Position numbers and translations under genes: made by a program. A stretch of 64,000 bases of DNA. It comes from a virus. This document shows positions 20,562 to 63,654 of the stretch, one piece after another (within the stretch, counting starts at the first letter, position 1; the number at the start of each line of letters is the position of its first letter). Under the pieces are notes generated by a model, which was not told where the DNA came from, ran no database searches, and saw nothing but the letters and a program-made list of their open reading frames with translations. The stretch is from IMG/VR virus record IMGVR_UViG_3300008255_000002; one strand, given 5' to 3'.

Positions 20562-20600
20562 ATAAAATAAAAAAAATCCCGCCATAAGGCGGGATAATTA
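20562..20600. terminator. Terminator between convergent gene blocks
   Basis: Perfect stem ATCCCGCC-ATAA-GGCGGGAT (20576-20595) with A-run on the left (U-tract for minus-strand transcripts). Confidence 0.85.
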
Positions 20601-20601
20601 T

Positions 20602-21060
20602 TTACCAGTCAAATTTACGTTTAATAAATTCTACAAGTAATGTTCTTAGTACAATAGATTCTCCATAACTAATGCTATGCCCAACCTTTGTATTAACACC
20701 ATCTCTTTGTACAGATACTTCTAAAAAGAAGTTTTGTTTTTCTGTATTTTTTGTTAATTTAATAACTGTGTTTCCTTTTGGATTTTGGTGATATAATCCT
20801 TTTCCAAGATTCTCACGATATCCATCTAAAACTGTTAGTAGGGCACCAACATCATTTTCGTTAAGAAGTGCGGTAACATTATTATCCCAATCAAATTTGG
20901 CATTATCGTTATCGCTTGGAACTTCGTTTGCCATTACTAAAAATAACATTACTTTGTTAAATTTTTTGTCGTCCTTTTGAACTTCTTTTGTGCGGATCTG
21001 AAATTGCGATGCAGACCCTTTACCTTTAAACGGTTTATAAATTCTAAAATCTTGTGACAT
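20602..21060 (-). CDS. Whirly-like single-stranded nucleic-acid-binding protein
   Basis: IYKPFKGKGSA, FDWDNNVTALLNENDVGALL, LYHQ, FFLEVSVQ, ISYGESIVLRTLL...FDW match, in order, the plant Whirly motifs IYKGKAAL, YDWS.KQ.FSLS.TEIG.L, FFHD, FFNLSVQ, VTKAEFAVL...LGW as I recall them. Confidence 0.7.
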   Translation of the reverse strand: MSQDFRIYKPFKGKGSASQFQIRTKEVQKDDKKFNKVMLFLVMANEVPSDNDNAKFDWDNNVTALLNENDVGALLTVLDGYRENLGKGLYHQNPKGNTVIKLTKNTEKQNFFLEVSVQRDGVNTKVGHSISYGESIVLRTLLVEFIKRKFDW

Positions 21061-21857
21061 TATTTATTTCTCCAATTGCTATCGTAACCCTTAATATCCT
21101 CTGTAACTTCTTTATCGTTGCAATATTTTTGAATTTCATTAAGGATAACCTTAGCTTCTCTTTCGAGAATATTGCTGATACGGTCAAACTTCATTTTATA
21201 TTCTTTTTTAACTTTATTGATAAATTTACCAATATTAATATTTGTTTCTAATGCAATTTTTTCAAGAATTGATAGTTGGATTTCATTGATTACTTCAGAA
21301 GTAATATCATCTGAGGCGACACCATTAACCATTTCTTCGCTTGCATTACATTGAATTGCTAAAGCATTGATAAAACATCGGCTTTTTGCGCGAGTTTCTG
21401 CCATTGCCGTAACAAATTTACCAAACCTAGGATCTTGAATATTATATTGAACTTCTTCAAATCCAGGAAGTTTTTTCAGAATAACATATGCATCAGCAGA
21501 ACCAACAGAAGTTCTTTCAACTCCATCTTTACCTAAAATACGAATAGAATAAGTATTAGATGACATAATAACATCTGAATTGATAGTTGTTTGTCTATCT
21601 TCATCCTGATCAATAATATCACCTTCTAATAGATAAATTAATCTCCTTAATCCAAACATTCTAGGATTACCATAGCATAATTCGTCTGATGTTAAATGAC
21701 TTAATACATATTGTGTCCATTCAGGATCAGCTTTTGTTGACGTTCTTTTCTTTATTTCTAAATCTGAAGATGGTTCATCATCAACAACAATAACATCTGT
21801 TTCTTGTGAATCTTCTAGTTCAACCATATCTTCTATTTCTTGTTTTTTTCTTGCCAT
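21060..21857 (-). CDS. Rad52/ERF-like single-strand annealing protein
   Basis: GSADA...TAMAETRAKSRCFINALAI...SEEM core typical of SSAPs, plus helical C-terminal domain; TAATG coupling to Whirly-like gene. Confidence 0.6.
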   Translation of the reverse strand: MARKKQEIEDMVELEDSQETDVIVVDDEPSSDLEIKKRTSTKADPEWTQYVLSHLTSDELCYGNPRMFGLRRLIYLLEGDIIDQDEDRQTTINSDVIMSSNTYSIRILGKDGVERTSVGSADAYVILKKLPGFEEVQYNIQDPRFGKFVTAMAETRAKSRCFINALAIQCNASEEMVNGVASDDITSEVINEIQLSILEKIALETNINIGKFINKVKKEYKMKFDRISNILEREAKVILNEIQKYCNDKEVTEDIKGYDSNWRNK

Positions 21858-21862
21858 ATAAA

Positions 21863-22669
21863 TTATAACTCCAATATAATAATTTTTTCTTCTATTTTAT
21901 TTTCTTTAATATCTTCAATTTTTTGCAATATTCTTTCAAAGGCAAGTAGCATTTTTGTTTTACTCATTTTTTGAATATGTCTAACTCGCATAACACGATA
22001 GCCAAATTGAGTTAATAAACCATTTTTTTCTCTATCTCTTTCTTGTCTTTTTTTAAATTTTTCCGGTTCATTATATACATCGATCATGTGCGCGGGACCA
22101 TCAATCTCAATACATAATAATAATTCACGAATATAAATATCTACTCTTAAATCTTCATTTGGGATAAGTGCTGTTTTTTGTGTCTCAGAAAATATATTAT
22201 TTTTTCCTAATTCGTCCACAACAAACTTTTCAAATTTAGATCCGCTACGTGAAGTTGCATTAATAGCTTTCATTCCCCTTAATACAAACTCCTTCTTTTC
22301 ATCTTCCGTCAAACTATTATAGTATTTTTTGCCCCGATCAGAGCGTTCCTTTTTTTGGGATTCATCGAGTTCGTCATACTTTTTACTTAATGTTTTCCCA
22401 ATTTTTTCTTTTGTTTCTTCTGATCTTTTAGTTCCTTTAGTGGGTGATTCTCTTTTTCCTTGATCGTATAAAAGTTGACACGCTTCTTTTTTTGAACGCA
22501 TCTGAAATCCATAATACAAGAGAGCGTTTCTAATTCTCCATTGATCAGTATTTAATTCTACAGCAATTTCATATGTAGACATTTTTTTAACTTCAAAAAA
22601 CTCATTTAGTAATTCTTTACTCCATGTAGGAGCGATTGCTTTACGTCCCATAATCCACCCCGAATTCAA
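21863..22669 (-). CDS. Homing endonuclease-like protein: HTH + NUMOD3 + Vsr/DUF559 PD-(D/E)xK nuclease
   Basis: KGTKRSEETKEKIG (NUMOD3); SKFE...RVDI...IEIDGPAH...DREKN..L...GYRVMRV. Confidence 0.75.
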   Translation of the reverse strand: MNSGWIMGRKAIAPTWSKELLNEFFEVKKMSTYEIAVELNTDQWRIRNALLYYGFQMRSKKEACQLLYDQGKRESPTKGTKRSEETKEKIGKTLSKKYDELDESQKKERSDRGKKYYNSLTEDEKKEFVLRGMKAINATSRSGSKFEKFVVDELGKNNIFSETQKTALIPNEDLRVDIYIRELLLCIEIDGPAHMIDVYNEPEKFKKRQERDREKNGLLTQFGYRVMRVRHIQKMSKTKMLLAFERILQKIEDIKENKIEEKIIILEL

Positions 22670-23102
22670 AATCTGAAACTACATCTTTTACCTCTCTATT
22701 CCAAGCATTTTCAATGATTTTTTTATGTGAATATGATCTTACAACAAGTTCTAAAGATGGATGTTGGTAAATTGATGCTAAAAATTCATATGGCAATTTT
22801 GGGTTATATCGTAGCCATTCGAGATCCCAAATATAATAAATTTTTCTTTTTGGTCCAGGGCACTTAATTAATTTTTGGGCGGTACTCAAATTTGTAGCGA
22901 TTGCAGTCCCATTCCAGCTATAACCATATACGATGTTCATTAGAGAGAATGAATGTTGTATAGGTGTGTGTGATAAGTTCTCAAAAAAGATAGCGTAATC
23001 AATATTTTGTTTAGATATTTTATTTCCTAAACACATTGAATAGAACGATAATTGAGAAGCAAAAAGATCACTTACAAAAATTCCTAATTTCTTTCTTTTC
23101 AT
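22641..23102 (-). CDS. Glycosyltransferase-like single-domain protein
   Basis: 153 aa; IAT...TA...KIYYIWDLEW pattern resembles GT-B N-terminal lobes. Confidence 0.4.
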   Translation of the reverse strand: MKRKKLGIFVSDLFASQLSFYSMCLGNKISKQNIDYAIFFENLSHTPIQHSFSLMNIVYGYSWNGTAIATNLSTAQKLIKCPGPKRKIYYIWDLEWLRYNPKLPYEFLASIYQHPSLELVVRSYSHKKIIENAWNREVKDVVSDFEFGVDYGT

Positions 23103-23109
23103 ATATCCC

Positions 23110-23530
23110 TCTGTATATTAGTGAATGTTATCCTACATACTAATACACATCGGGATAGTTCTAAAGAAGTTATTTTTTAGAAAATTGCGCACCATCCCCT
23201 TTATGGGTGAGATAGGCTTTATTTTGGTGTTGTTGTGTTTGTTATATTAGTAATAATATTTCGTGTTTTTGCCTATCTCTTTACTATTACTATTCCCGAT
23301 TTTTAGGATTTTTATTATCTCACCACTAGGTTGTTAGGTTTAGAACATTGCCTAGTTTTGTCTTTGTGATACTTACCTAAAACATACATTAGCGCGAGGA
23401 TGGTTATCGCGTTGGGTCGGTAGGATTTTGCGTACCTACTCGTTTTCTACGGGAAATACACATTGGAAAACAAAAAAAACTGCAAAAAAAAGACCGTTTC
23501 GATGACGGGTTATTACCCGGTTTTTATTTC
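23110..23530 (+). ncRNA. Candidate structured non-coding RNA (family unknown)
   Basis: About 500-bp ORF-free gap with many nested inverted repeats; G-U wobbles fit the + strand; ends in hairpin CGGGT-TATT-ACCCG plus T-tract. Confidence 0.45.
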
Positions 23531-23599
23531 CACTGTATCAAGTGGCAATTTTGTTTGTTTGTGTTATATATCAATACACTATTGTATTTTTTTTATGAG

Positions 23600-24328
23600 T
23601 TAGTTGCTCAAAAACATTCCAGATTTGTCCAAACAGAGATATAATTTTTCTTCTCTCCATATCTCGTTAACTGTCGCCCCAACATGCAAACCTAATTCTG
23701 ATGGCATAGGTGTTTTAAGGGGAAATGGTTGATTATATCCGTGTCGCATCCAACTAAAAACAATTGGTTCTATAAATTTTTGATAGAAAAACCAAATATC
23801 AAAAAATACCATTGGTTGATTTAGTTTTGGGTATTCGTGAATCCGATATTTCTTATATATTTCTTGTATATTAGAATATATTCCCCCAACTAAACCGCAT
23901 ATACCGGGCATTATAATACAATTCGTATGTGCCGCGCAATCATATATAGAATGTGCAAGCATACCAGATTCTACCCATTCCGAAACCGCATCAGCTTCGC
24001 GTGGATTAACTCGCGAATCACAATCACGAAAGATAGCGCGTTCACAATCTTTTTCATCTAAAACATTATATCGCCACGACATCGCAGCATTACGAAAATC
24101 ATCTTTCCAGTTTTTATCATTAATTCTATCAACTCCCTTGATTGGTGGGGCAATGACCAATTTTATATTCATTTCCTCTAATACACTTAGAGCCGGGCAA
24201 TCCTCGGATATGTAAACTATAGGGGTCCACCCCGGATAGTATTTTTCTATTAGGGGAAGATTTTGCAACATCCCCTCACAATACAATTTTATATTTCCAT
24301 ATAATGAAAAACTTACATATTTAGCCAT
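23600..24328 (-). CDS. Putative GT-A-type glycosyltransferase
   Basis: SFSLYG...YYPGW...MSWRY...IFRDCDSR (DxD); start taken at MAKYV. Confidence 0.55.
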   Translation of the reverse strand: MAKYVSFSLYGNIKLYCEGMLQNLPLIEKYYPGWTPIVYISEDCPALSVLEEMNIKLVIAPPIKGVDRINDKNWKDDFRNAAMSWRYNVLDEKDCERAIFRDCDSRVNPREADAVSEWVESGMLAHSIYDCAAHTNCIIMPGICGLVGGIYSNIQEIYKKYRIHEYPKLNQPMVFFDIWFFYQKFIEPIVFSWMRHGYNQPFPLKTPMPSELGLHVGATVNEIWREEKLYLCLDKSGMFLSN

Positions 24329-25139
24329 ATATATAATCCTTTCCAAACTTTCTCTCCATCTTATACCCACATTCTAAATAATATAGAATGTCCACAATTT
24401 CAAACGCTTTACATCCTGTAATAGACCACGCTGGATAATTATTAGGATAATGAATTTTAGGTATTTTTGAATTTGATAAAGATATTTGTTTAAATATTCC
24501 TATAACCCAATTTAAAAATATTTCTGTTCCAACTATAGACAATTTAAGACTTTTAGTTCCAGATTTGTTTCGTATCCATTTTATACTTCCGTCTCCTTCT
24601 ATATAACCAACTATATAAGATAAAGATTGTTCTAAAGTTAGTTTATCGGGCGGCTTTAGCGTTAAACTTTTATTTTTTGTTATATTAAAATGATTTAAAA
24701 GATCTTCTCTCCATTGTTTTGCCGACCAAAAATTAACTCGGCACATTTTACTAATATTTCCACTTGGATTAATAACTTCATAGTCTTTGATAGGACCATT
24801 AAAATTTGTTGCAATTACAAATTCTTTTAATAAAATTTTATCTGTTCTTTTTATAGATATTCCAATTCCATTACCTTTACAAAAATAACCATCAGAAGCT
24901 ATTAAACCAGCCCATTTACAACTTTCTAAGTTTTTTATATTTGAAAAGAACCATTTATCAATATTATATTTGGAATGAGCCTGACTAAGATCAGTTTTTA
25001 ATCCAAGAAAACTAGCCATTCTTTGTATTGCTTGTTTTGTTCTGGTTGGAAGTAATTTTTCTATATCATATATAGTTATGTTGCTATAATAATTTTTTAA
25101 GATTTCAACTTCTTCTTTCGTCCATCTTTGTCTTTGCAT
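24321..25139 (-). CDS. LAGLIDADG homing endonuclease with N-terminal Myb/HTH
   Basis: WAGLIASDG and YIVGYIEGDG motifs; RWTKEEVEIL N-terminus. Confidence 0.85.
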   Translation of the reverse strand: MQRQRWTKEEVEILKNYYSNITIYDIEKLLPTRTKQAIQRMASFLGLKTDLSQAHSKYNIDKWFFSNIKNLESCKWAGLIASDGYFCKGNGIGISIKRTDKILLKEFVIATNFNGPIKDYEVINPSGNISKMCRVNFWSAKQWREDLLNHFNITKNKSLTLKPPDKLTLEQSLSYIVGYIEGDGSIKWIRNKSGTKSLKLSIVGTEIFLNWVIGIFKQISLSNSKIPKIHYPNNYPAWSITGCKAFEIVDILYYLECGYKMERKFGKDYIYG

Positions 25140-25883: not shown

Positions 25884-26369
25884 TCATGATGTTAAAACAC
25901 ACCCCCAAAAACGAGAAATTCCATCAAAATATGCATATTTTCCACCATTAATATAAGATGCTGAAATTGCTAACTTATTAGCTTTTCTGTTTAAAATTAT
26001 ATCGCGGTGCCCAATGCTTGAACCCATCCACATATTAAATGGATTTTTAACTGAATACTCACCCCCTAAAGCAAGAACTTCTGATGACCACGATCTATTA
26101 ATTCCAAAATCTTGCATTCTTTTGTGAAATGGTCGTCGCAAAGAATCTGTATGGCTGATCTCACCTGTTTTTGCGTTATCCTTTGTTATATAATTCACTA
26201 CATCTAATAAATTAGAATCAAACTCAACTAAACCTAGATTTCTACGTTTTCGTTCTTCGTTTAATATATTCACAAAATCGTTATTCAAATTTAAAATTTC
26301 GTCAGCGGTATATTCAAATACTTCGCTTTCTTTTATTTTTCTTCTAAAGAAACACATCGTAATCCACAC
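25884..26369 (-). CDS. CAP/SCP (cysteine-rich secretory protein-like) domain protein
   Basis: ILNEERKRRNL...ISHTDS...SEVLALG...WMGSSIGHRDIIL. Confidence 0.8.
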   Translation of the reverse strand: MWITMCFFRRKIKESEVFEYTADEILNLNNDFVNILNEERKRRNLGLVEFDSNLLDVVNYITKDNAKTGEISHTDSLRRPFHKRMQDFGINRSWSSEVLALGGEYSVKNPFNMWMGSSIGHRDIILNRKANKLAISASYINGGKYAYFDGISRFWGCVLTS

Positions 26370-40177: not shown

Positions 40178-41194
40178 TCATTCATAAAATTCATCTCTTA
40201 ATTGAATAATGTTCCTATCTTGTAGATAACTTCTATCCCGTTCCTTTAGAAACCCATAAAATTTATTTTCTAGTGGCGTCTGGAATGATCCGGTTCTTAT
40301 CATATGTGGTTGTCCCTTTTGTAATCGTTCTAACGCGCCACGCATACGTTTCCATGTGTTATAATATGGGGTTTTTAGTTTGAATTGGAATCCTTCGTAA
40401 TCTTCAACAACAAATCCTTCATGGGGGAAATTTGGATTTTCTGAATTATCATTTTGAACATCATTGAGAAATTTTTCAAAATAATCCCAAGACGCAAAAC
40501 TATATGGTTGTTGTTTACATTCAAATTTTAAATGCGATGATATTGTTTTTAATTCTTTATATTCTACTTTTTCAAATTTTTCTGTTCTGCAAATTGCATC
40601 AAGTAATACTAATTTTGGTTCATCATGTTTAATAATATGTGGATCATTTTTAGGATCAATTACCTCAAAGACCAAACTTAAATTTCTATCTTTAAGTATA
40701 TGTTTAATTTGTGATGTGTGAGTCTTATATAATTGATCTTCAAACCACTCAACATAATCACTTTCATTAGTAGCTTTTGTACAAACAAAAAGATCGTTCT
40801 TTTCCCTATTATATCCAACAATCCCCAGATACCCATTATACTTTTCGTATACAGATACAGGGAATTTAATATTTTGCTTTAGGGAAGATAATTGTGTTTC
40901 GGGACGCTCACCATAATTGAAAAATTTCTCATATGACCGCGCAACAATTTCACCAGTCACCACATTAACGAATAATCCGCGAGCACGAATTGTATTTTCA
41001 TCCCAATTCTTTTTTGTGAATGCTTCGCGCGTAAAGTTGAATGATGATATATTTCCCCCTAATTGACGCTCTTTTATATATTTACTACTGTGTAGTTGTT
41101 CGATTAGAGGAATATTAGAATTAATGATTTGTTTCTTTTCTGGCAATGGTCTATATGTAGTGTTTGGTATCTCGATACAATTAAACTTGAGCAT
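40178..41194 (-). CDS. RNA ligase, T4 Rnl1-like nucleotidyltransferase domain
   Basis: RARGLF, YEKFFN, motif I EKYNG, VFEVI, EGFVV, FKLK. Confidence 0.9.
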   Translation of the reverse strand: MLKFNCIEIPNTTYRPLPEKKQIINSNIPLIEQLHSSKYIKERQLGGNISSFNFTREAFTKKNWDENTIRARGLFVNVVTGEIVARSYEKFFNYGERPETQLSSLKQNIKFPVSVYEKYNGYLGIVGYNREKNDLFVCTKATNESDYVEWFEDQLYKTHTSQIKHILKDRNLSLVFEVIDPKNDPHIIKHDEPKLVLLDAICRTEKFEKVEYKELKTISSHLKFECKQQPYSFASWDYFEKFLNDVQNDNSENPNFPHEGFVVEDYEGFQFKLKTPYYNTWKRMRGALERLQKGQPHMIRTGSFQTPLENKFYGFLKERDRSYLQDRNIIQLRDEFYE

Positions 41195-41444
41195 TTTTAT
41201 CTCTATAAATGAATATTACAGTTGCGTTTTCATCTGTTATTTTTTCTTTATTATTCCCTATTTTAACGCTACCTTGTTTAATAAGGGTTTTAGCTTGTGT
41301 TTTACTTTGAGCAAAATCTATATGTACCATAACGTCATATAGTTTCATCTCTACACCAATAATTTTACCATTTAAAACTTCATTTTCAAATTCTGGGTCG
41401 GATGGATCTACATCATCACTATGAATTGTTGCAACATGATTCAT
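41181..41444 (-). CDS. Stand-alone S4 RNA-binding domain protein
   Basis: LYDVMVHIDFAQSKTQAKTLIKQGSVKIGNNKEKITD matches the S4 pattern L...L...G.A.S..EAR.LI..G.V.ING..I.D. Confidence 0.75.
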   Translation of the reverse strand: MNHVATIHSDDVDPSDPEFENEVLNGKIIGVEMKLYDVMVHIDFAQSKTQAKTLIKQGSVKIGNNKEKITDENATVIFIYRDKNAQV

Positions 41445-42591
41445 TATAAATCTCTAATATCCTTAAATTTCCACCAAATTCTACTTGACCATCAAGATTA
41501 AAGAACCCCGAATTCACCTGTAGTGGTAGATGGTTAGGGTTTCTATGTCCTACTACACTATAGTGGTTTTTCGGCATTGTTTCGTGCCAAATTTTCGCGC
41601 ACTGGTCAACTTCTTCATAGGAACCAACCCCCTTAACTAACTGTTCTGTTGCGATAGCTAATAAATTTTCGGGAAGTGTTGGTAATCCTCCATGAGTCGC
41701 CAAAAAATAATTTTCGTGAAATTTAAAATAGCAAAGTTGCGCAAATCTTCTGGTCCATTCGCGAAGATCGCTTTTATTAAATTTTTTCAGTTTCTCGGTG
41801 GTATTTTTTTTAAATTCACCACTAAAGATTTCTTTTTCTTGGTTGTTCGCGTATAAATATGTCCACTGGTCATGATTGCCTAAAACCATACATACGTTAG
41901 ATTTATTATAAATTGATAGTGCGAATTCAACACATTGTTCTTCTTGTAATCCACGATCTACCCAATCACCCAAAAAGATATAGAAGTAATTTTCATTAAA
42001 TGGATTTTGTGTGAAATATTCATTAAGAGGTTCCCAACAACCATGAATATCTCCAATTAGAACAACCTTTTCATATTTAGATAAATCTCTTGGTTCATAT
42101 TTAAATGTTTCGTAAAACTCAGATGGTTTAATCGTTTTACACCAATTGGGCGGTTTTTGAGTCGCGAAGCGACTATACATATTATCAATTACATTTTCCG
42201 GCACAACCTTATATGATGGTGTACGATTTTTATTGCGACTTTTAGTGACTTCTATCGACACATCAGAAAAATCAATGCAATATGCACGATAACGATATTT
42301 TTCAACAAGAGTTTTATATTTACTGAAATCTTTGGTTTTTGAGTGGGTTGCATCTACAAAAATTAATTCGCCCCGCTTCATCCTTTCCTCTAACACACTA
42401 AATAATGTTTTCCATACAGAATTATCATTTTTTTGAGATATACCAAATTTTCCATCAACTTGCATAATTGGGGGTTGTGTAAGTAATCGGATATCATCAG
42501 CACATATTGTATATTCAGACAGGTTGTTATCTTTAATCCAGGTTGATTTTCCGCAACCCGGACTTCCGCGAAGTATATATATAACTCTCAT
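41419..42591 (-). CDS. Polynucleotide kinase-phosphatase (P-loop kinase + metallophosphoesterase)
   Basis: GSPGCGKS, VDATH; GDIHG, GDWVDRG, GNHD, THGG, VGH. Confidence 0.9.
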   Translation of the reverse strand: MRVIYILRGSPGCGKSTWIKDNNLSEYTICADDIRLLTQPPIMQVDGKFGISQKNDNSVWKTLFSVLEERMKRGELIFVDATHSKTKDFSKYKTLVEKYRYRAYCIDFSDVSIEVTKSRNKNRTPSYKVVPENVIDNMYSRFATQKPPNWCKTIKPSEFYETFKYEPRDLSKYEKVVLIGDIHGCWEPLNEYFTQNPFNENYFYIFLGDWVDRGLQEEQCVEFALSIYNKSNVCMVLGNHDQWTYLYANNQEKEIFSGEFKKNTTEKLKKFNKSDLREWTRRFAQLCYFKFHENYFLATHGGLPTLPENLLAIATEQLVKGVGSYEEVDQCAKIWHETMPKNHYSVVGHRNPNHLPLQVNSGFFNLDGQVEFGGNLRILEIYNESCCNNS

Positions 42592-42731
42592 TTTCTAGCC
42601 CATTCAATAACAGAGATTATTAGTGCTCCAAACGCAAATCCAACCATCATCATATAGATTATAATATTAAGTTTGATAAAGATACCAGTAATTAAACCAA
42701 TGATAATAGCCAAAAGTATTATATCAAGCAT
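42588..42731 (-). CDS. Small two-TM membrane protein (47 aa, below ORF-track cut-off)
   Basis: MLDIILLAIIIGLITGIFIKLNIIIYMMMVGFAFGALIISVIEWARK*; ATGA overlap with the kinase gene. Confidence 0.55.
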   Translation of the reverse strand: MLDIILLAIIIGLITGIFIKLNIIIYMMMVGFAFGALIISVIEWARK

Positions 42732-43173
42732 CGCCAAATTCCTTTTTTAATCGTTTATATTCTGCGAGCTTGTTCTTTTTTTGAAGTTCTAATTGTTTTT
42801 TCTCATATTCTAACTCTTCTTCTGTGTGTTCTCGATATCCGAAAATCGCAAGTTCTTTTCCATCTCCATATTGTTCATCTACAGATTCTAATACAAATTT
42901 ATGAAATATCAATTCTTTTGTGTGTGGTTTTCCTATCGAATGACTTTCCCAAAAACCTCCAGGTGGTATAGGACGCCATATAACTTTAATTGGTTTACCG
43001 ATATTAGTTTGGTATTTATTATATATATCTTGAATCTTTTTAAGAACCTCGGATAATTCCCCCTCAAAATCATATATCTGAAATCTTTCAATTTCTTGTC
43101 TACAAAGTCGCAGTTTATCCATTTTTTCTCCTAAGAAAATCAAATTTGTCATCAGATTTCCAGCTTTCAGCAT
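42724..43173 (-). CDS. Hypothetical protein
   Basis: ORF in operon tiling; true start likely MDKLRL. Confidence 0.55.
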   Translation of the reverse strand: MLKAGNLMTNLIFLGEKMDKLRLCRQEIERFQIYDFEGELSEVLKKIQDIYNKYQTNIGKPIKVIWRPIPPGGFWESHSIGKPHTKELIFHKFVLESVDEQYGDGKELAIFGYREHTEEELEYEKKQLELQKKNKLAEYKRLKKEFGDA

Positions 43174-43594
43174 AATACGGTAAATCGCTATTTGGCATTA
43201 CAAGCAAACGAATTTTTGCACCATCTTTATCGCCAACATATCCGATAAAATCATCTATTAGAATATCAATATCTAGTTGTTTACACAACTCTGCTTTACA
43301 GGCTTCGCTATATTTTTCGTAATCCGCACTATAAACATTATCAGGATCTACTAGTATTGGACATAAATAGTTGCTTCGCAACATTTCTACAATTTTATCT
43401 TTTGGGTGCATATCACTAATTACATATATTGAAACTAATCCGCTATGTTCTAATGCTCTGATAAGTGTGTAAAATTCTTTAGGATATTTAGATAAAACTC
43501 CACCAACATCAATAGCCGTATTACAATTACAAAGAACTAAATCTAATTCAAAAATACAATGATGTTTCACATCTAATATTTCATAAATATCCAT
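43115..43594 (-). CDS. HAD-superfamily hydrolase (nucleotidase-like)
   Basis: IDVGGVL, YVIS, K...C...DILIDD. Confidence 0.6.
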   Translation of the reverse strand: MDIYEILDVKHHCIFELDLVLCNCNTAIDVGGVLSKYPKEFYTLIRALEHSGLVSIYVISDMHPKDKIVEMLRSNYLCPILVDPDNVYSADYEKYSEACKAELCKQLDIDILIDDFIGYVGDKDGAKIRLLVMPNSDLPYYAESWKSDDKFDFLRRKNG

Positions 43595-44835
43595 TAACTT
43601 ATTTCCTCTGTATCAACATATTGATCGTCTGCTTTAGCCAAATCTTCCATAACAAGAAAATTAAAATTCTTATGTTTGTATGTTTCAAATTTTGATGTGT
43701 GATTTCTTCTAACACAACATCCCTCTAAATAATGGTTTCCCATAGGATCTGGACCATCACCCAAAACCCTCACTTTTTCTAAAAGTTCTTCTGGATCACC
43801 ATTATATATAAAACGATCAAGTTCAACAGGTGTTTTAACTCCTAATTCATCAGCACGTTTTACAACATCATCCCAAGGTAAATCTATTTGTATTCCTTCT
43901 GGATTAACATACACAACCCTATATAATAGAACCTTAAATTCACCCTCGCGACAACCATAATTATAAATCATTTTAGATCCATATTTGGTTGTAAATTCTT
44001 TATCTTTGAGTTTGGTTGTGTCGTGCGATGGCATTATTGGGACTGGTCCGTCAAAACCCACAATCTCATAATACAAAATTTCGTTTTTATTCAGCTTCCC
44101 ATCAAAATATTCGTTGATTTTTTTTCTTAGATCATTATTAACTACCTTATTATCTTCTGTTAAAATAACATTACGACTACCACTAATAGTTTGATATGTT
44201 TGGTTAGGAAAGATATTATATAAACGATTAACGAGTTGTTTCCATTTTGGTAATTCAATATTGTGTAATACGTGTGCTGTGCGTCCTGAACTTCCGTGAG
44301 ATTTTTGAGTTATGACAAGAAAATCGCCATTTTTAAATTTATGAGGAAAGTATTTGATATTTTCCGTATCTATATGTTTTCTAAAGTAAATTGTTTCTCT
44401 GCGAACTTTTATTTTTTTGGAGTTTTCTGTCATGTTTTGACGTGTTGCTTTAGCGTAATATTTTTCACAAATACGAATATTGTTAACAACATCTCCGCGA
44501 AATCCCACATCAAGACTATCTGTTGTTTCTTTTCCTACTATTTTTTCCAAATATGATATAGGACAAACCAAACCCTCCGATATCGCTCCACGGAATTTTT
44601 GTGCCCTAATTCTTAGATTTTGTTCCAAATATCCGCCAAGTGGTCGCGTTAGTTTATTGGTTTCGGCAAACTCTTTTGAAACACAACCGTCTACAGGAAA
44701 AAATAAAACTTTATCCCCTTCTTTCGCATCCAACCCAACCACACATTGAGATCCAAGAACCTCACATAGTTGAATTCTGTCGGCGTTTGGATGAGCGTAT
44801 ACTTTTTTGATCGTTGTAAGATAGAAATAATACAT
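43594..44835 (-). CDS. RNA ligase, DRB0094/Rnl2-like, with N-terminal tRNA-binding OB fold
   Basis: HPNADRIQL, RGAISEGL, motif I QKSHGS, YYEIVG, EGCCVR, YKHKN. Confidence 0.85.
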   Translation of the reverse strand: MYYFYLTTIKKVYAHPNADRIQLCEVLGSQCVVGLDAKEGDKVLFFPVDGCVSKEFAETNKLTRPLGGYLEQNLRIRAQKFRGAISEGLVCPISYLEKIVGKETTDSLDVGFRGDVVNNIRICEKYYAKATRQNMTENSKKIKVRRETIYFRKHIDTENIKYFPHKFKNGDFLVITQKSHGSSGRTAHVLHNIELPKWKQLVNRLYNIFPNQTYQTISGSRNVILTEDNKVVNNDLRKKINEYFDGKLNKNEILYYEIVGFDGPVPIMPSHDTTKLKDKEFTTKYGSKMIYNYGCREGEFKVLLYRVVYVNPEGIQIDLPWDDVVKRADELGVKTPVELDRFIYNGDPEELLEKVRVLGDGPDPMGNHYLEGCCVRRNHTSKFETYKHKNFNFLVMEDLAKADDQYVDTEEIS

Positions 44836-57034: not shown

Positions 57035-57236
57035 TTAAAAAAATCCTAATTGTTAAAATGATACCCAAAATAATAGTTGAAAATATAAAAAAACTACAAA
57101 ATAGATTAAAAAGCATTAATTTGGTAATAAAACTAGTTAATTTATCACTTTTGTCTGAAAAAATATCATATAAAATAAAAGTTGTTATGCATAATATATT
57201 GATACATATATAACTTCTTAGTATTAATAACTCCAT
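57015..57236 (-). CDS. Small membrane protein
   Basis: Two hydrophobic segments, TAATG coupling to guaC. Confidence 0.5.
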   Translation of the reverse strand: MELLILRSYICINILCITTFILYDIFSDKSDKLTSFITKLMLFNLFCSFFIFSTIILGIILTIRIFLIENNII

Positions 57237-58738
57237 TATCTTACCCTTATAAAATTAGCATTATTACGTAATTCTATTAAATTTTTAGAATTTGTATATG
57301 TGCATGTAGACCTTAGCCCTCCAAGAAAATCTTGAACAACATCATTAATAGATCCTTTATAATCTACTAAACTAACCTTCCCTTCAGATGCTCTATAAAA
57401 CTGTTGATTATTATACTTTTTCATAGCTTCTGAACTTGCCATTCCGTAAATTTGATGATATTTTTTATGACCATTCTCATCATATATCCATTCTCCATCA
57501 CATTCTTCGCACCCTCCAAACATAGATCCAATCATTATAAAATCTACCCCAGCCGCAAAGGCTTTAGCGGCATCTCCAGAAGTTTTAATCCCACCATCTC
57601 CACACACATATATATTATGTTCGTGTGCTAATTGAACACAATCAATAATTGTTGATAATTGTGGAACACCTACCCCTGTAACTTTTCTGGTTTGACATTG
57701 AGAACCTGGACCAATACCAACCTTAATAATTTTAATACCTAATTTTATTAAGTCTGAAAAACCGCTTGGGGTACAAACATTACCAACCATTAAATGTGTA
57801 TTTGGTAGTTTTTTTCTAAGTATTTTAACAACATCTCGAAGTTTTCGTATGTATCCATTAGCCACATCAACACATAATAATCTAATAGGGATTTGTTTAT
57901 TTATTTCGTATATTTTTTCTAAATCTAAATCATTTATACCGCAACTAAGAAATATATTATTTGTTATATCTTTTTTTTCTTTCATAAATTTTACTACTTT
58001 ATCTATATCATAATATTTATGCAGACATGTCATCATATTATGATTTTTTGCTAATACTTCTCCTATCTTAAGAGTGCCGCAGAAATCCATATTTGACGCT
58101 ATAATAGGAATAGCATTTATCTCTAAATCATCAAATTTTCTATCTAATACAACTTGAGACCTACTGTCTATATTGCTTAAAATAGGTTCTATTAATACAT
58201 CATCAAAATCAATTTTTTTATTCATAATTCTGTTTTGGTAAAATGAAATTTTTGAGATATGTTCCAAAAATTCTGATTGATTACTAGACCATTTAAATTT
58301 ATTACATTTTCCACAACATGTTACAATATTACTTTTTATATATCCAATATCATTCTTAACTCTATCTATTCCATTATGAATAAAAGAAGATATTTTTTGT
58401 GATGGCAAATTCCCACAATAATAACAATGCTGTTGTGTTAACTCGTAAAATTCTTCTTTTGTTAAATCGAATTCTCTATTACGTTTTAATGCATTTTTTT
58501 TATATGTATTATACATACAATAAAAACCGCCAGGATATTCATCGACAATTCTTCTAATACATCCACAACTTTTCTTGGTTTTTATTTTATGAACTGGAAG
58601 TGGTTTTGTTAAATTATCATAATATCCACATTTACATATCCATAAATGTCTTCCTTTTTCTTTTTTACCTACATATTCTACAACCTTAGGTTTGCCGAAT
58701 TTTTTTTCTAATAAACCTTTTTTATACTTTATCGGCAT
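57236..58738 (-). CDS. guaC: GMP reductase with in-frame N-terminal HNH endonuclease-like domain
   Basis: From Met at 58225: DFDDVLI, ASNMD, DVANGY, KVGIGPGSQCQTR, DGG, YGMAS, YRASEGK; upstream 171 aa has SCGC, CYYCG, GIDR..N..GY...N.V.CC..CN. Confidence 0.85.
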   Translation of the reverse strand: MPIKYKKGLLEKKFGKPKVVEYVGKKEKGRHLWICKCGYYDNLTKPLPVHKIKTKKSCGCIRRIVDEYPGGFYCMYNTYKKNALKRNREFDLTKEEFYELTQQHCYYCGNLPSQKISSFIHNGIDRVKNDIGYIKSNIVTCCGKCNKFKWSSNQSEFLEHISKISFYQNRIMNKKIDFDDVLIEPILSNIDSRSQVVLDRKFDDLEINAIPIIASNMDFCGTLKIGEVLAKNHNMMTCLHKYYDIDKVVKFMKEKKDITNNIFLSCGINDLDLEKIYEINKQIPIRLLCVDVANGYIRKLRDVVKILRKKLPNTHLMVGNVCTPSGFSDLIKLGIKIIKVGIGPGSQCQTRKVTGVGVPQLSTIIDCVQLAHEHNIYVCGDGGIKTSGDAAKAFAAGVDFIMIGSMFGGCEECDGEWIYDENGHKKYHQIYGMASSEAMKKYNNQQFYRASEGKVSLVDYKGSINDVVQDFLGGLRSTCTYTNSKNLIELRNNANFIRVR

Positions 58739-60441: not shown

Positions 60442-60840
60442 CTAAAATGGTACTTCTTCTGTATCCTCTACTTCTTCTTCTGTTTCCACTTCTAATTCCG
60501 GTTCTTCATCTTCCACTTGTGTTTGAGTTTCATTTCTATCTTTTTTAGGAGCACTAGCATTTTGATCAAATTGTAAGAATGAAGCTAAAATATATTCATA
60601 TTTCTTATCATTATAATCTTCTTGAACCAACAATCCCATAATTTTGATGCGATTTCCAGGTTTAAGTTTTTGGGCGAATTTTGCTGTATAATCCCAACAT
60701 TTTACTACCTTAAATGTTTTTTGTGTTTTTCCGTTGCTATAGAAATTACTTACAACATTAAATTGTGCCCATTCATTGCCATTTTTAGCTTTGCCGCTTT
60801 TTACTTCACGAACAACCGTAACATTATCTGATACTTGCAT
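60442..60840 (-). CDS. ssb: Single-stranded DNA-binding protein (OB fold)
   Basis: OB core plus acidic tail ending EEVPF. Confidence 0.85.
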   Translation of the reverse strand: MQVSDNVTVVREVKSGKAKNGNEWAQFNVVSNFYSNGKTQKTFKVVKCWDYTAKFAQKLKPGNRIKIMGLLVQEDYNDKKYEYILASFLQFDQNASAPKKDRNETQTQVEDEEPELEVETEEEVEDTEEVPF

Positions 60841-60870: not shown

Positions 60871-63654
60871 TCAAATTCGTTTAGCTCCATTAATAATTAA
60901 TGATTTTTTATACTTTTCATCTTTGCTTGTGCTACGCGCACATTCAACTAAAACGCAAGCTCCTTCATAGACAGTTTTATCTTTTGTTAATTCTTTTAGC
61001 GTATCGGGAAAAATAACCGCGTTTACTTCTCCGGTTTTATCTTTCAATGTAACAAATGCCATATTCTGTCCGGCACTTGCTCCACCTTTACAAGTATGGT
61101 ATCTTAGCGAAGCAATTTCGACCAAAAAGTTTAGAGAATGATTGTCTAGTCGATCTTCTAGGAAGTCTTCTATTGTCGATGCTGTATTATTTTTATATTT
61201 ATCTAGGTTATTATAGGTTAAGCTAATTCCAAGTAATTCAGTTTCTTTTTCAATAATTTCGTGTTCAAAATCACTTAAATCCATTGGTGGTTTTTTTAGA
61301 ACATTAATAACGTCGTTGATAATAGAGACTCTGTTTTTATTGTGACACGCACCCCCTTCTTTTTTAGTTTTCGCGGCACTTGTTAATAAATCAATTATGT
61401 TATCGTGATTATGATAATTTTCCCTAACCCAAAGCTTTTCTTTTTCGTTGACTATAGAGAATTGAGCAACTTCAAAAGCCATTTTTTTTCTATCAGAACT
61501 AATTTTCCTTAACGCACCGCACTCAATTAATATTTTTAAAACTGATGGAGATAAATCATTTAAAACTAAAAATTCGTACCAGCTACAACCGTTTAATTTT
61601 AATTTTGATAATTGTTCTTTGGTGTGAATTGTGGTCGTTTCACCTATACCTGATATATCTGATAAACCAAATATAATTGTGTTTTTATCTAAAATTTTAA
61701 ATTGAATATCACTATTTATAATACATGGAGGAATCACATTAATATCAAACTGTTTCGCATCAACAACTAATTCAACTATAGATTCCTTTTCACCGTTACA
61801 ACCTTTGAGCCATGCGACGAACCAAGGCAAGACATGATTAGCTTTTAAATATGCTGTTGTGTAAGTTCTTATCCCATAACCATATGCGTGCGATGCATTA
61901 AAAATATAGCGCGCAGATGCTTTAATATTATTTGCAATGTTTTCAGCTTCCTCTTTAGTAACAATGCCTTTTTCTGTAGCTTTTTCAACAAATAATTTTA
62001 GAATATTTGTCATTTCTTCTGCGTTTTTCTTTCCGGCGGAATTATGTATAACCATTCCGTTTGCGATAATATATGGTGAATCTTCATCAGCAATTGTAAA
62101 ATCATATACGGGAATAGTTTTTACTTCTTGTCGTTCTGTTTCCAATATTTCATATGTGTGCTTTCCATTAGAAAGATTGATCCAATATGGATCGTTGGTG
62201 TTTATAGCTAATCTTTTAAATTTAGTTATTGATAAATCTTGAGAATAAACAGATCCTCCATCATTATTACAAATACATTGTGGGTATTGATCTATCATTT
62301 TTATAACAATATGATGTGGCACTGTATCTGTTGTAAATTGGGAAATTCTATTAATATTATTGATTAGGTCTTGTTTTTTATAATCTGCCCAAAACTCATG
62401 TAGATTTTCATTAATTAATTTCTTTTGATCTTCTACGTCATTAATGTATAATCTATAATATGTATCATTATATCCATCAACCTTCCTTTCTCTAATATAA
62501 CTTCTAATACCAAATCTTAACAAAAGTAGTTTTACCTGATTTATTAATTTGTTTGATTTGGATGAAAATTCTAATTGTCCGCCATCTTTATTTACTCCAG
62601 CCTCATGACCTAATAAATGAGATAAAAACACTCGTGTAGTTTCTTTTGTCATTCCCATCATAATATCTGGTAGTTTCTTTCTGTCTGAGCGACCAAAATC
62701 CATATATTTTAAAAGAAAATCTATATGTTGTTTGTGTAATCTTGCAACTCTACCACACGAATTCATTGGAGGATAATGACCAAAAACATTTTTAAATGAT
62801 TCTTTGTAAGAATTCATTACATTTTCATCAAAGTTTGTAAAATGACCATATCCGCCTTCTTTATTCTTATTATTAAATAATCCTTCGGCAACTATTCCGA
62901 CAATCACAATAGCTAAATCTTTACTTATTAAATCATCTCCATCATATTCGATTTCTCTTGTACAAACCATTACATCTTTTTGTGGTTTTAATCTAGATCT
63001 AGCTTTCCACCCCTGACTTGTTAGAAGTTGATGAAATTTTGTTGCTTTAACATTGAATCCGCTGTTTGTTTTAACAACCCCTGTATTACAAATTTTTGTT
63101 TGCCAAATTCTTTCTATTTTCTTCCATTGCTGCTTCCCATTCTCATCCATTACTAAAAAAAGATCATTTTTATATCCTTCTTTTAATAATCTATCTATAG
63201 TAATCCATCCCCGCGTTTTAGAAACAAACATTGTATCGCCAGATACACACTTCCTTAATTTATCAACCTCTAATAAACTAAAATCTGCCAATTCTCTAGC
63301 AATAGCCATCATCGCTTCTTGATAAATCATCAATTGTTCTGTATCACTTAACATTTTATCTAATGATGGATGCCACGAAATAGCTTCTTCTTCTTTGTTT
63401 TTTCTAAGTATATAGTGGTCTGTAATAGATATATTTTTTTCGTCGCGGGCATTGAGACAGCCGGGGCGAAGTAGGCTTAATAAGGCGGCTATATGATGTA
63501 TATTTTCAGGTTTTAACCTAGCACACATCTTACCCGCCCACTTCTTTTCTAATTGAAATACTCCGGCTGTTCTACCAGTCCAAAATATTTCTTCATATGT
63601 TTTTCTATCATCTAGTGGAATTGTTTCGTAGATGTTATTTGTTGTAAATTTCAT
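60871..63654 (-). CDS. dnaE: DNA polymerase III alpha, C-terminal part only, intein-containing
   Basis: IPLDD, GVFQLE, LLRPG, IYQE, FNASHAYGY, FGLSDISGIG, MAFVTLKDKTG; PHP and palm absent. Confidence 0.9.
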   Translation of the reverse strand: MKFTTNNIYETIPLDDRKTYEEIFWTGRTAGVFQLEKKWAGKMCARLKPENIHHIAALLSLLRPGCLNARDEKNISITDHYILRKNKEEEAISWHPSLDKMLSDTEQLMIYQEAMMAIARELADFSLLEVDKLRKCVSGDTMFVSKTRGWITIDRLLKEGYKNDLFLVMDENGKQQWKKIERIWQTKICNTGVVKTNSGFNVKATKFHQLLTSQGWKARSRLKPQKDVMVCTREIEYDGDDLISKDLAIVIVGIVAEGLFNNKNKEGGYGHFTNFDENVMNSYKESFKNVFGHYPPMNSCGRVARLHKQHIDFLLKYMDFGRSDRKKLPDIMMGMTKETTRVFLSHLLGHEAGVNKDGGQLEFSSKSNKLINQVKLLLLRFGIRSYIRERKVDGYNDTYYRLYINDVEDQKKLINENLHEFWADYKKQDLINNINRISQFTTDTVPHHIVIKMIDQYPQCICNNDGGSVYSQDLSITKFKRLAINTNDPYWINLSNGKHTYEILETERQEVKTIPVYDFTIADEDSPYIIANGMVIHNSAGKKNAEEMTNILKLFVEKATEKGIVTKEEAENIANNIKASARYIFNASHAYGYGIRTYTTAYLKANHVLPWFVAWLKGCNGEKESIVELVVDAKQFDINVIPPCIINSDIQFKILDKNTIIFGLSDISGIGETTTIHTKEQLSKLKLNGCSWYEFLVLNDLSPSVLKILIECGALRKISSDRKKMAFEVAQFSIVNEKEKLWVRENYHNHDNIIDLLTSAAKTKKEGGACHNKNRVSIINDVINVLKKPPMDLSDFEHEIIEKETELLGISLTYNNLDKYKNNTASTIEDFLEDRLDNHSLNFLVEIASLRYHTCKGGASAGQNMAFVTLKDKTGEVNAVIFPDTLKELTKDKTVYEGACVLVECARSTSKDEKYKKSLIINGAKRI
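62041..63249 (-). mobile_element. Intein (403 aa) with LAGLIDADG endonuclease in DnaE
   Basis: LRK|CVSGDT...TKFHQLL...VYDFTI...ANGMVIHN|SAGKK; removal restores DKLRKSAGKK. Confidence 0.92.

Follow-up and report, generated by a model that had tools for sequence, protein, structure and literature searches.

A Whirly-domain protein and a predicted Rad52-superfamily annealase encoded by overlapping genes in a putative phage recombination operon

A 64,000-nucleotide stretch of the IMG/VR virus record IMGVR_UViG_3300008255_000002 (the window hereafter, meaning the whole stretch that was analysed) carries at positions 20602-21857 two overlapping genes, one for a Whirly-domain protein and one for a predicted single-strand annealing protein (SSAP, or annealase). 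Taking all the evidence together, we consider it probable that the former is a Whirly-type binder of single-stranded DNA (ssDNA), that it is coupled to a two-domain SSAP, and that both belong to a four-gene operon for annealing or recombination. An earlier, sequence-only reading of the window had proposed the two open reading frames (ORFs) and their junction, and they are present as it gave them, both on the minus strand. The SSAP gene (P0006, 265 aa) occupies 21060-21857, and the Whirly-like gene (P0001, 152 aa) occupies 20602-21060. Their coupling junction (21058-21073) reads TAATG: the SSAP stop codon TAA (21062-21060) and the Whirly-like start codon ATG (21060-21058) have one base in common. 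A GGAG sequence at 21073-21070 precedes this ATG with a 9-nt spacer.

Is the resemblance of the 152-aa protein to plant Whirly proteins a real one? Every motif from which it had first been named a Whirly homolog is located in the translation, namely RIYKPFKGKGSAS, KFDWDNN...NENDVGALL, GLYH, NFFLEVSVQ and a C-terminal GESIVL...FDW. In Pfam the only match is the Whirly family PF08536 (E 8e-4), which covers profile positions 2-135 of 136. Among 146 relatives, 32 match PF08536 at E<=0.01, the best of them at E 1.6e-8, and 2 match the Pfam MRP family. A search of the PDB with the single sequence gave nothing useful, and a profile of the 146 sequences had three meaningful matches there and no others: StWhy2 (E 0.002), AtWHY2 (E 0.036) and the trypanosome protein MRP2 (E 0.096). 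In the profile alignment the viral FDW lies opposite the plant YDW, and the C-terminal helix ending in W is aligned as well. Judged from these alignments, the Whirly resemblance exceeds what chance would give. The Whirly-like family is large: at E<=1e-3 an exhaustive profile search returned 905 cluster representatives, of which 447 also pass E<=1e-10, and lengths range over 118-210 aa in the best 150 of the 905. ESM Atlas has already given neighbouring clusters, whose members are viral or from Verrucomicrobiota, the automatic name "Whirly transcription factor domain-containing protein", so automated annotation already partly recognises viral Whirly proteins.

The AlphaFold2 model of the protein (pLDDT 96.7, pTM 0.89) has a beta4-alpha-beta4-alpha layout, with a long C-terminal helix at residues 132-149. 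In Foldseek the first ten ranks are taken by plant Whirly structures, with template modelling (TM) scores of 0.72-0.78, and after them come MRP1/2 (0.64-0.67) and PURA (about 0.39). Structural alignment with VIA gave Z 17.6 for StWhy2 and 17.2 for PBF-2, with a root-mean-square deviation (rmsd) of 2.4 Å across 140 residues; MRP followed with Z 16.9 and Pur-alpha with Z 7.9. PC4-type proteins reached Z 5.0-5.5 with only half of the model matched. For example, the PC4 homolog of phage T5 (4bg7, Z 5.5) is aligned to residues 2-66 only. Single-stranded DNA-binding proteins (SSBs) of the PC4 type, such as the T5 homolog, YdbC and SP_0782, have one beta4-alpha repeat per chain and form a dimer between chains, while here both repeats lie in one chain, as in the type I PC4-like fold, and can be superposed on solved Whirly structures. 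The best structural matches are plant Whirly proteins, neither an unrelated fold nor a PC4-type SSB, and the homology first read from motifs is upheld. As modelled, the product of the 152-aa gene is a genuine Whirly-domain protein, belonging to the plant Whirly/MRP branch of the PC4-like fold. We infer that it most likely forms a tetramer and binds ssDNA without regard to sequence.

How close does it come to the plant proteins? The homotetramer of plant Whirlies has a whirligig shape built on the C-terminal helices. The solved plant structures (StWhy1/PBF-2 p24, StWhy2 and AtWHY1-3; PDB 1l3a, 3n1h, 4koo, 4kop and 4koq) show the same two-repeat beta4-alpha fold along the whole chain, and the sequence similarity is detectable and extends to the (F/Y)DW motif and to the C-terminal helix with its final W. 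The differences are that identity is 16-21%, that the protein is encoded by a phage, in an operon with an annealase, and that it has no transit peptide. It has neither an N-terminal targeting peptide nor an acidic C-terminal tail, and the last helix is the end of the chain. KGKAAL, a motif of higher-plant Whirlies, is present only as KGKGSA (residues 12-17) and is not conserved in the family of the window protein, whose consensus at this place is K-x-x-x-G-A-A-S, with G15 invariant and A17 nearly invariant. The motif is also absent from algal Whirly-like proteins (PMC9070903).

What kind of protein is encoded by the gene upstream? By sequence, the 265-aa protein stands outside every named family. 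The window protein has no match in Pfam, PHROG or NCBIfam, no PDB match was obtained with either the single sequence or a 96-sequence profile, and RecT matches occur in only 3 of the 96 relatives, at E 0.1 or weaker. A profile built from the neighbours of Whirly homologs gave at least 125 SSAP-like proteins and 512 confirmed IMG/VR loci. In the AlphaFold2 model (pLDDT 83.9) the N-terminus is disordered and acidic, and two domains can be distinguished. The putative annealing domain at residues about 40-171 (21345-21740, minus strand) consists of a helix, three long strands and a long helix, and carries the conserved motifs DGLRR and AETRAxGRxxxxAL. Foldseek against the PDB places human RAD52 first (E 4e-4, probability 1.0), then 80alpha Sak and Mgm101. 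With VIA, this domain gave Z 6.0-6.9 for RAD52 (105-114 residues), 5.8-6.0 for Sak and 5.7 for the N-terminal domain of Red-beta. In BFVD there are 51 matches at E<=1e-3, and their functional names are RecT, ERF, Rad52, Bet or SSAP, save one ('DNA repair protein'). The core annealase fold is thus found in the model, at middling scores and with double-stranded RNA-binding domains (dsRBDs) tied on Z. The helical domain at residues about 186-252 (21102-21302, minus strand) resembles the C-terminal docking domain of Red-beta (6m9k, 8tfu, 8tg7), with VIA Z 8.0-8.1 and rmsd 1.9-2.5 Å over 62-68 of 63-70 residues. In Red-beta this domain binds lambda exonuclease and the C-terminal tail of SSB (PMC6393309). 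The assignment is convincing because both domains indicate the same kind of protein: on its model, the 265-aa protein is a two-domain predicted annealase like lambda Red-beta, and the SSAP-like partner named by the sequence-only reading does have an annealase fold of the Rad52/Red-beta type.

Is the pairing peculiar to this phage? A Whirly-anchored sample was drawn from assemblies, IMG/VR, JGI metagenomes and GTDB genomes, and it held 32 further loci, all distinct, with a Whirly-like gene and enough flanking sequence. An SSAP gene adjoins the Whirly-like gene upstream, in the same orientation, in 30 of these; the two genes usually overlap or are separated by less than 40 nt, though protein identity across the SSAP-Whirly loci is only 30-45%. 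A neighbourhood survey had been suggested as a check on the pairing, and the pairing passed it. In the window the two genes are the last of a minus-strand operon, the order being a 153-aa ORF (22641-23102), a gene for a 268-aa nuclease (21863-22669), the SSAP gene and finally the Whirly-like gene. The "two-gene Whirly-SSAP module" proposed earlier is therefore right about the conserved pair and wrong about the extent of the operon, which here has four genes. Across the Whirly-type loci, the full four-gene order occurs in eight, the window included, one more has the nuclease without the 153-aa ORF, and in all other paired loci the SSAP-Whirly pair stands without an adjacent nuclease. The constant core is thus the SSAP-Whirly pair.

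The survey was also made from the side of the annealase, using the best 80 of the 512 IMG/VR loci as an SSAP-anchored sample. Five of these best 80 have a Whirly-like gene. In 72 the slot is taken by a zinc-ribbon protein whose gene overlaps the SSAP gene downstream; in one example (L013:8765-9091) it overlaps the SSAP stop codon, and others are found across loci L013-L091. In total, 73 loci with a relative of the annealase have this protein. This protein has a CxxC...CxxC pattern followed by a G-rich, W-containing tail, and its length is about 106-145 aa, mostly about 110-130 aa. Family searches gave generic zinc-ribbon matches and no known family, and ESM Atlas has no model of it. It is a candidate alternative partner, either as an ssDNA-binding or as an accessory protein. 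Among the zinc-ribbon-type loci, the full order of 153-aa ORF, nuclease, SSAP and partner is nearly universal. No Whirly-like gene was found in five whole zinc-ribbon-type phage records, which are 42-74% complete, and no clear zinc-ribbon homolog was found in the genome of the present phage. How are the two partners distributed? A quick maximum-likelihood tree of 85 SSAPs shows strong clustering by partner type: there are 4-5 changes, as compared with about 25 for shuffled labels, and well-supported branches require two of them at the least. SSAPs of the Whirly type are placed on long branches that lie deep in the tree. Since the tree is unrooted and its sampling biased, it allows no inference on which partner came first.

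Several of the results weigh against a Whirly ssDNA binder working with an annealase, and they should be noticed together. The window protein scores 19.7 bits with PF08536, whose gathering score is 23. The SSAP is assigned by fold only, with Z 6-7 for its N-terminal domain tied with the Z 5-6.3 of dsRBDs, and its Foldseek TM scores are low (0.22-0.26, normalised by query). Two loci (L111:1437-1964 and L112) have a Whirly-like gene without an SSAP gene upstream. Most of the sampled SSAP relatives are paired with a zinc-ribbon protein, so the SSAP has no need of a Whirly protein. All the loci come from related large phages with common tail and glycosyltransferase neighbours, so that the conserved adjacency may partly be a matter of inherited synteny and not of selection for coupling; the stop/start coupling kept at low identity argues for more than that. 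Finally, a phage Whirly-fold tetramer that prefers RNA has been described, ChmC (PMC11077065), and MRP1/2 also bind RNA.

Consider first the annealase. The 265-aa protein might instead be a nucleic-acid binder with a general alpha-beta3-alpha domain of the dsRBD kind, and the operon would then have some other DNA or RNA function. The dsRBD scores, which lie within 1 of that of RAD52, would fit such a protein, and so would its place outside all sequence families, with RecT found so rarely and weakly among its relatives. Yet the Foldseek top consists of RAD52, Sak and Mgm101 only, with no dsRBD, and the BFVD names are SSAP names in all but one case. The RAD52 alignments extend over 105-114 residues, compared with 65-82 for the dsRBDs, and the C-terminal domain, taken on its own, matches that of Red-beta at Z about 8, which gives the two-domain layout of Red-beta. 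We therefore regard a protein other than an annealase as quite unlikely.

Then could the Whirly-like protein mainly bind RNA, either as an mRNA chaperone or regulator like ChmC or as a matchmaker like MRP1/2, its place beside the SSAP being inherited gene order? That the loci are syntenic relatives would agree with this. ChmC, from the nucleus-forming phages of the Chimalliviridae, is likewise a phage-encoded Whirly-fold nucleic-acid binder, binding being predicted for the protein studied here. In the published description each ChmC repeat has three strands, the C-terminal tail is disordered and rich in N and G, RNA is the preferred ligand, and the sequence resembles no known protein (PMC11077065). 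Compared by that description, the window protein is set apart, for it has four strands per repeat, no disordered C-terminal tail and direct sequence similarity to plant Whirly. MRP1/MRP2 of Trypanosoma brucei have the Whirly fold at a Z (16.9) tied with that of the plant Whirlies, two of the relatives match the Pfam MRP family, and the role of MRP1/2, which are guide-RNA matchmakers, is to help complementary strands anneal. They differ in that they bind RNA, form a heterotetramer, are mitochondrial, and have weaker sequence similarity to the present family than plant Whirly has. The family is nearer to plant Whirly than to MRP in Pfam (32 relatives against 2), in the profile search (StWhy2 E 0.002 against MRP2 E 0.096) and in TM (0.72-0.78 against 0.64-0.67), and the stop/start overlap with the annealase persists at 30-45% identity. 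An RNA binder is, in our judgement, unlikely.

There is a further question, whether the Whirly-like protein opposes something rather than helps the SSAP. It might work against recombination as a fidelity brake, blocking annealing at microhomologies, or oppose host defence as an ssDNA shield or decoy against nucleases and ssDNA sensors. Plant Whirlies do suppress microhomology-mediated rearrangement (PMC6981420). What is more, the slot after the SSAP is exchangeable between Whirly and zinc-ribbon proteins, the SSAP tree having two swaps or more, and accessory or conflict genes typically show such exchange. Searches of Pfam, PHROGs and NCBIfam, the only libraries used, matched no family of defence or anti-defence proteins, and the present results do not separate a brake from a helper. 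We hold a role of this kind to be very unlikely, and keep to a probable ssDNA binder that would act with the annealase.

The other two genes of the operon deserve a description. The nuclease gene ends 5 nt before the SSAP start, and its own true start may be the ATG at 22651. The C-terminal half of the 268-aa protein matches Pfam DUF559 (E 5e-4), MTES_1575 (E 8e-4) and phrog_559 (E 5e-9), and DUF559 and MTES_1575 are Vsr-like PD-(D/E)XK nucleases; its profile found only noise in the PDB. BLASTP gave 82 matches among the fetched loci, and the matches listed have 31-37% identity and lie just upstream of an SSAP gene. Residues E147, D177, E188, D190, H194 and K215 are invariant among the relatives. 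A sporadic homing endonuclease was considered for this gene and is ruled out by the 82 matches, by the same position in the matches listed and by the invariant catalytic residues. The 153-aa ORF, first in the operon, has no family match in Pfam, PHROG or NCBIfam. It has 85 BLASTP matches among the fetched loci, with 30-43% identity among the matches listed, and its place ahead of the nuclease gene is conserved. On the downstream side, a bidirectional intrinsic terminator at 20576-20595 (8-bp stem with 6 GC pairs, T-runs on each strand) separates the 152-aa gene from a convergent gene for a 1033-aa structural protein. On the upstream side there is an ORF-free gap of 497 nt (23103-23599), where the operon promoter is expected; it contains two terminator-like hairpins on the plus strand, at 23506-23519 and 23530-23545. 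Further upstream, on the minus strand, there are a free-standing LAGLIDADG-like gene (24321-25139) and a gene for a protein of the CAP/cysteine-rich secretory family (25884-26369).

The operon may be compared with lambda Red. Both have an SSAP with a Rad52-fold N-terminal domain and a three-helix C-terminal domain, the two C-terminal domains being superposable, and both have an adjacent nuclease of the PD-(D/E)XK superfamily. The differences are that sequence similarity is lacking, that the nuclease here is DUF559/Vsr-like and not YqaJ/lambda-Exo-like, and that the operon adds a Whirly-fold predicted ssDNA binder. No gene for an exonuclease of the YqaJ/lambda-Exo type was found in the searched phage genome.

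The phage also encodes an OB-fold SSB of 132 aa (P0272) at 60442-60840 on the minus strand. The sequence-only reading had placed a separate canonical SSB at 60442, and it is borne out by a PF00436 match (26.8 bits, cut-off 26) and by the C-terminus EEVEDTEEVPF, a classic acidic SSB tip. One relative of the Whirly protein (P0005, L001:6001-6576) has a 42-residue acidic C-terminal extension ending in DLPF, like the tip of bacterial SSB. From the two tails and the Red-beta-like docking domain we suggest an SSB-type tail as the means by which the SSAP is brought to coated ssDNA; the OB-fold SSB would carry it in this phage, and the Whirly protein in some relatives. The phage SSB is thus a candidate ligand of the SSAP C-terminal domain.

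How might the parts act together? One scenario is that the operon is a module for single-strand annealing or recombination-dependent replication. The nuclease would make or process DNA ends, a Whirly-like tetramer would coat the ssDNA and hold it unfolded, and the SSAP would anneal the coated ssDNA to a complementary strand. The C-terminal domain of the SSAP would dock on an acidic SSB-type tail, which here would be the one ending in EEVPF on the OB-fold SSB, whereas some relatives would have it on the Whirly protein itself. A recombination protein with a dedicated ssDNA binder is known from phage pairs of SSAP and cognate SSB, such as HK620 Sak4 with its SSB (PMC5928155), and the T5 PC4 homolog offers a further likeness within the wider PC4-like superfamily, although the PC4-like SSBs are single-repeat dimers. 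The closest functional precedent, by analogy, may be found in plants, where WHY2 co-purifies with the RAD52-like protein ODB1 and the two proteins both promote homologous repair in preference to microhomology repair (PMC9070903, PMC6981420). In both cases a Whirly protein and a Rad52-fold annealing protein would act on the same ssDNA, as is predicted for the phage pair. In plants, the two genes are unlinked and nuclear and the interaction is reported to be via DNA, whereas the phage genes overlap in one operon; the likeness seen between ODB1 and this SSAP is that of a common fold class.

The setting of the operon should also be described. The source record of the window is a 138-kb IMG/VR virus record with a CheckV completeness of 90%, and the phage genome has a GC content of 31%. 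Its gene content includes a DnaE-type polymerase with an intein, many glycosyltransferases and RNA-repair enzymes. A tblastn search of 50,697 deposited phage genomes with the 152-aa and 265-aa proteins gave no match, a 357-aa structural gene likewise had none in deposited phage genomes, and the DnaE fragment had matches there only at <=27% identity. This absence of close matches indicates a phage without a cultured relative. Outside the window and more than 50 kb from the operon, profile matches identify a RecA-family gene (PF00154, 37 bits) and a PDDEXK_1 (Cas4/RecB-like) nuclease gene (G000:C1:34690-35370 and 40537-41331), and the phage may run both RecA-type and annealing-type recombination pathways.

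Several other genes of the window, all on the minus strand, were noticed in passing. The DnaE-type DNA polymerase III alpha fragment (60871-63654) is interrupted by an intein bearing a LAGLIDADG domain; its ORF starts within the finger domain, and the polymerase may be split or may extend upstream of the window. A 500-aa protein at 57236-58738 joins an N-terminal endonuclease VII/HNH-like segment (residues about 72-165) to an IMP dehydrogenase/GMP reductase domain (177-499), and may be a fusion of a homing endonuclease with a metabolic gene, or a miscall of the two as one. An RNA repair set at 40178-44835 consists of an Rnl1-like RNA ligase (40178-41194), a polynucleotide kinase (PNK)-like kinase-phosphatase (41419-42591) and another RNA-ligase-like gene, which has an OB domain (43594-44835). 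Among the Whirly-bearing loci, L111 and L112 are 1.9-kb contigs of 48% GC in which a 152-aa helix-turn-helix-like gene precedes the Whirly-like gene; they may be a non-phage (bacterial) setting of the family. Another locus, L114 (SHMW01000005.1, 104 kb), has the SSAP-Whirly pair together with glycosyltransferases 31-37% identical to those of the window, and it is binned in a Promethearchaeota (Asgard) metagenome-assembled genome. Most likely it is a mis-binned relative of this phage, though it may be an archaeal virus.

What is new in these observations? Modules of a phage SSAP with an ssDNA binder are already known, and so is the Whirly-fold RNA binder ChmC of jumbo phages. Full-text literature searches found no paper on phage Whirly homologs or on a Whirly-annealase pairing. 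The new points are a Whirly homolog at the sequence level in phages, its hard-wiring to a new family of Rad52-superfamily annealases, and the exchangeable slot for a Whirly or zinc-ribbon partner. Where, then, did the organellar proteins come from? A phage ancestry has been proposed for the organellar T7-like RNA polymerase, Twinkle and PolI-like polymerases, and plant Whirly is the nearest solved relative of the phage family by sequence. One may imagine that Whirly-fold ssDNA binders are an old and widespread viral partner of a large unnamed family of Rad52-superfamily annealases, and that plant organellar Whirly, perhaps with its ODB1 partnership, descended from such a phage module. We put this forward as a speculation that will more probably prove wrong than right by a wide measure.

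Recent plant papers call Whirly proteins plant-specific (PMC9070903, PMC11359715). The present results show that the Whirly family reaches beyond eukaryotes, with a large viral Whirly-like family that in the loci examined is hard-wired to a Rad52-fold annealase. They offer a simple viral counterpart of the Whirly and Rad52-like pairing of plant mitochondria that is open to bench work. With just two proteins, this is a minimal system in which to study the cooperation of Whirly and Rad52-like annealase, a question still standing for WHY2 and ODB1. There is in addition a large new family of annealases, marked by a docking domain of the Red-beta kind and by accessory partners that can be exchanged; it bears on how an SSAP chooses the ssDNA binder it works with, and perhaps on recombineering tools as well. 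Where organellar Whirly came from thereby becomes a question that phylogeny can address.

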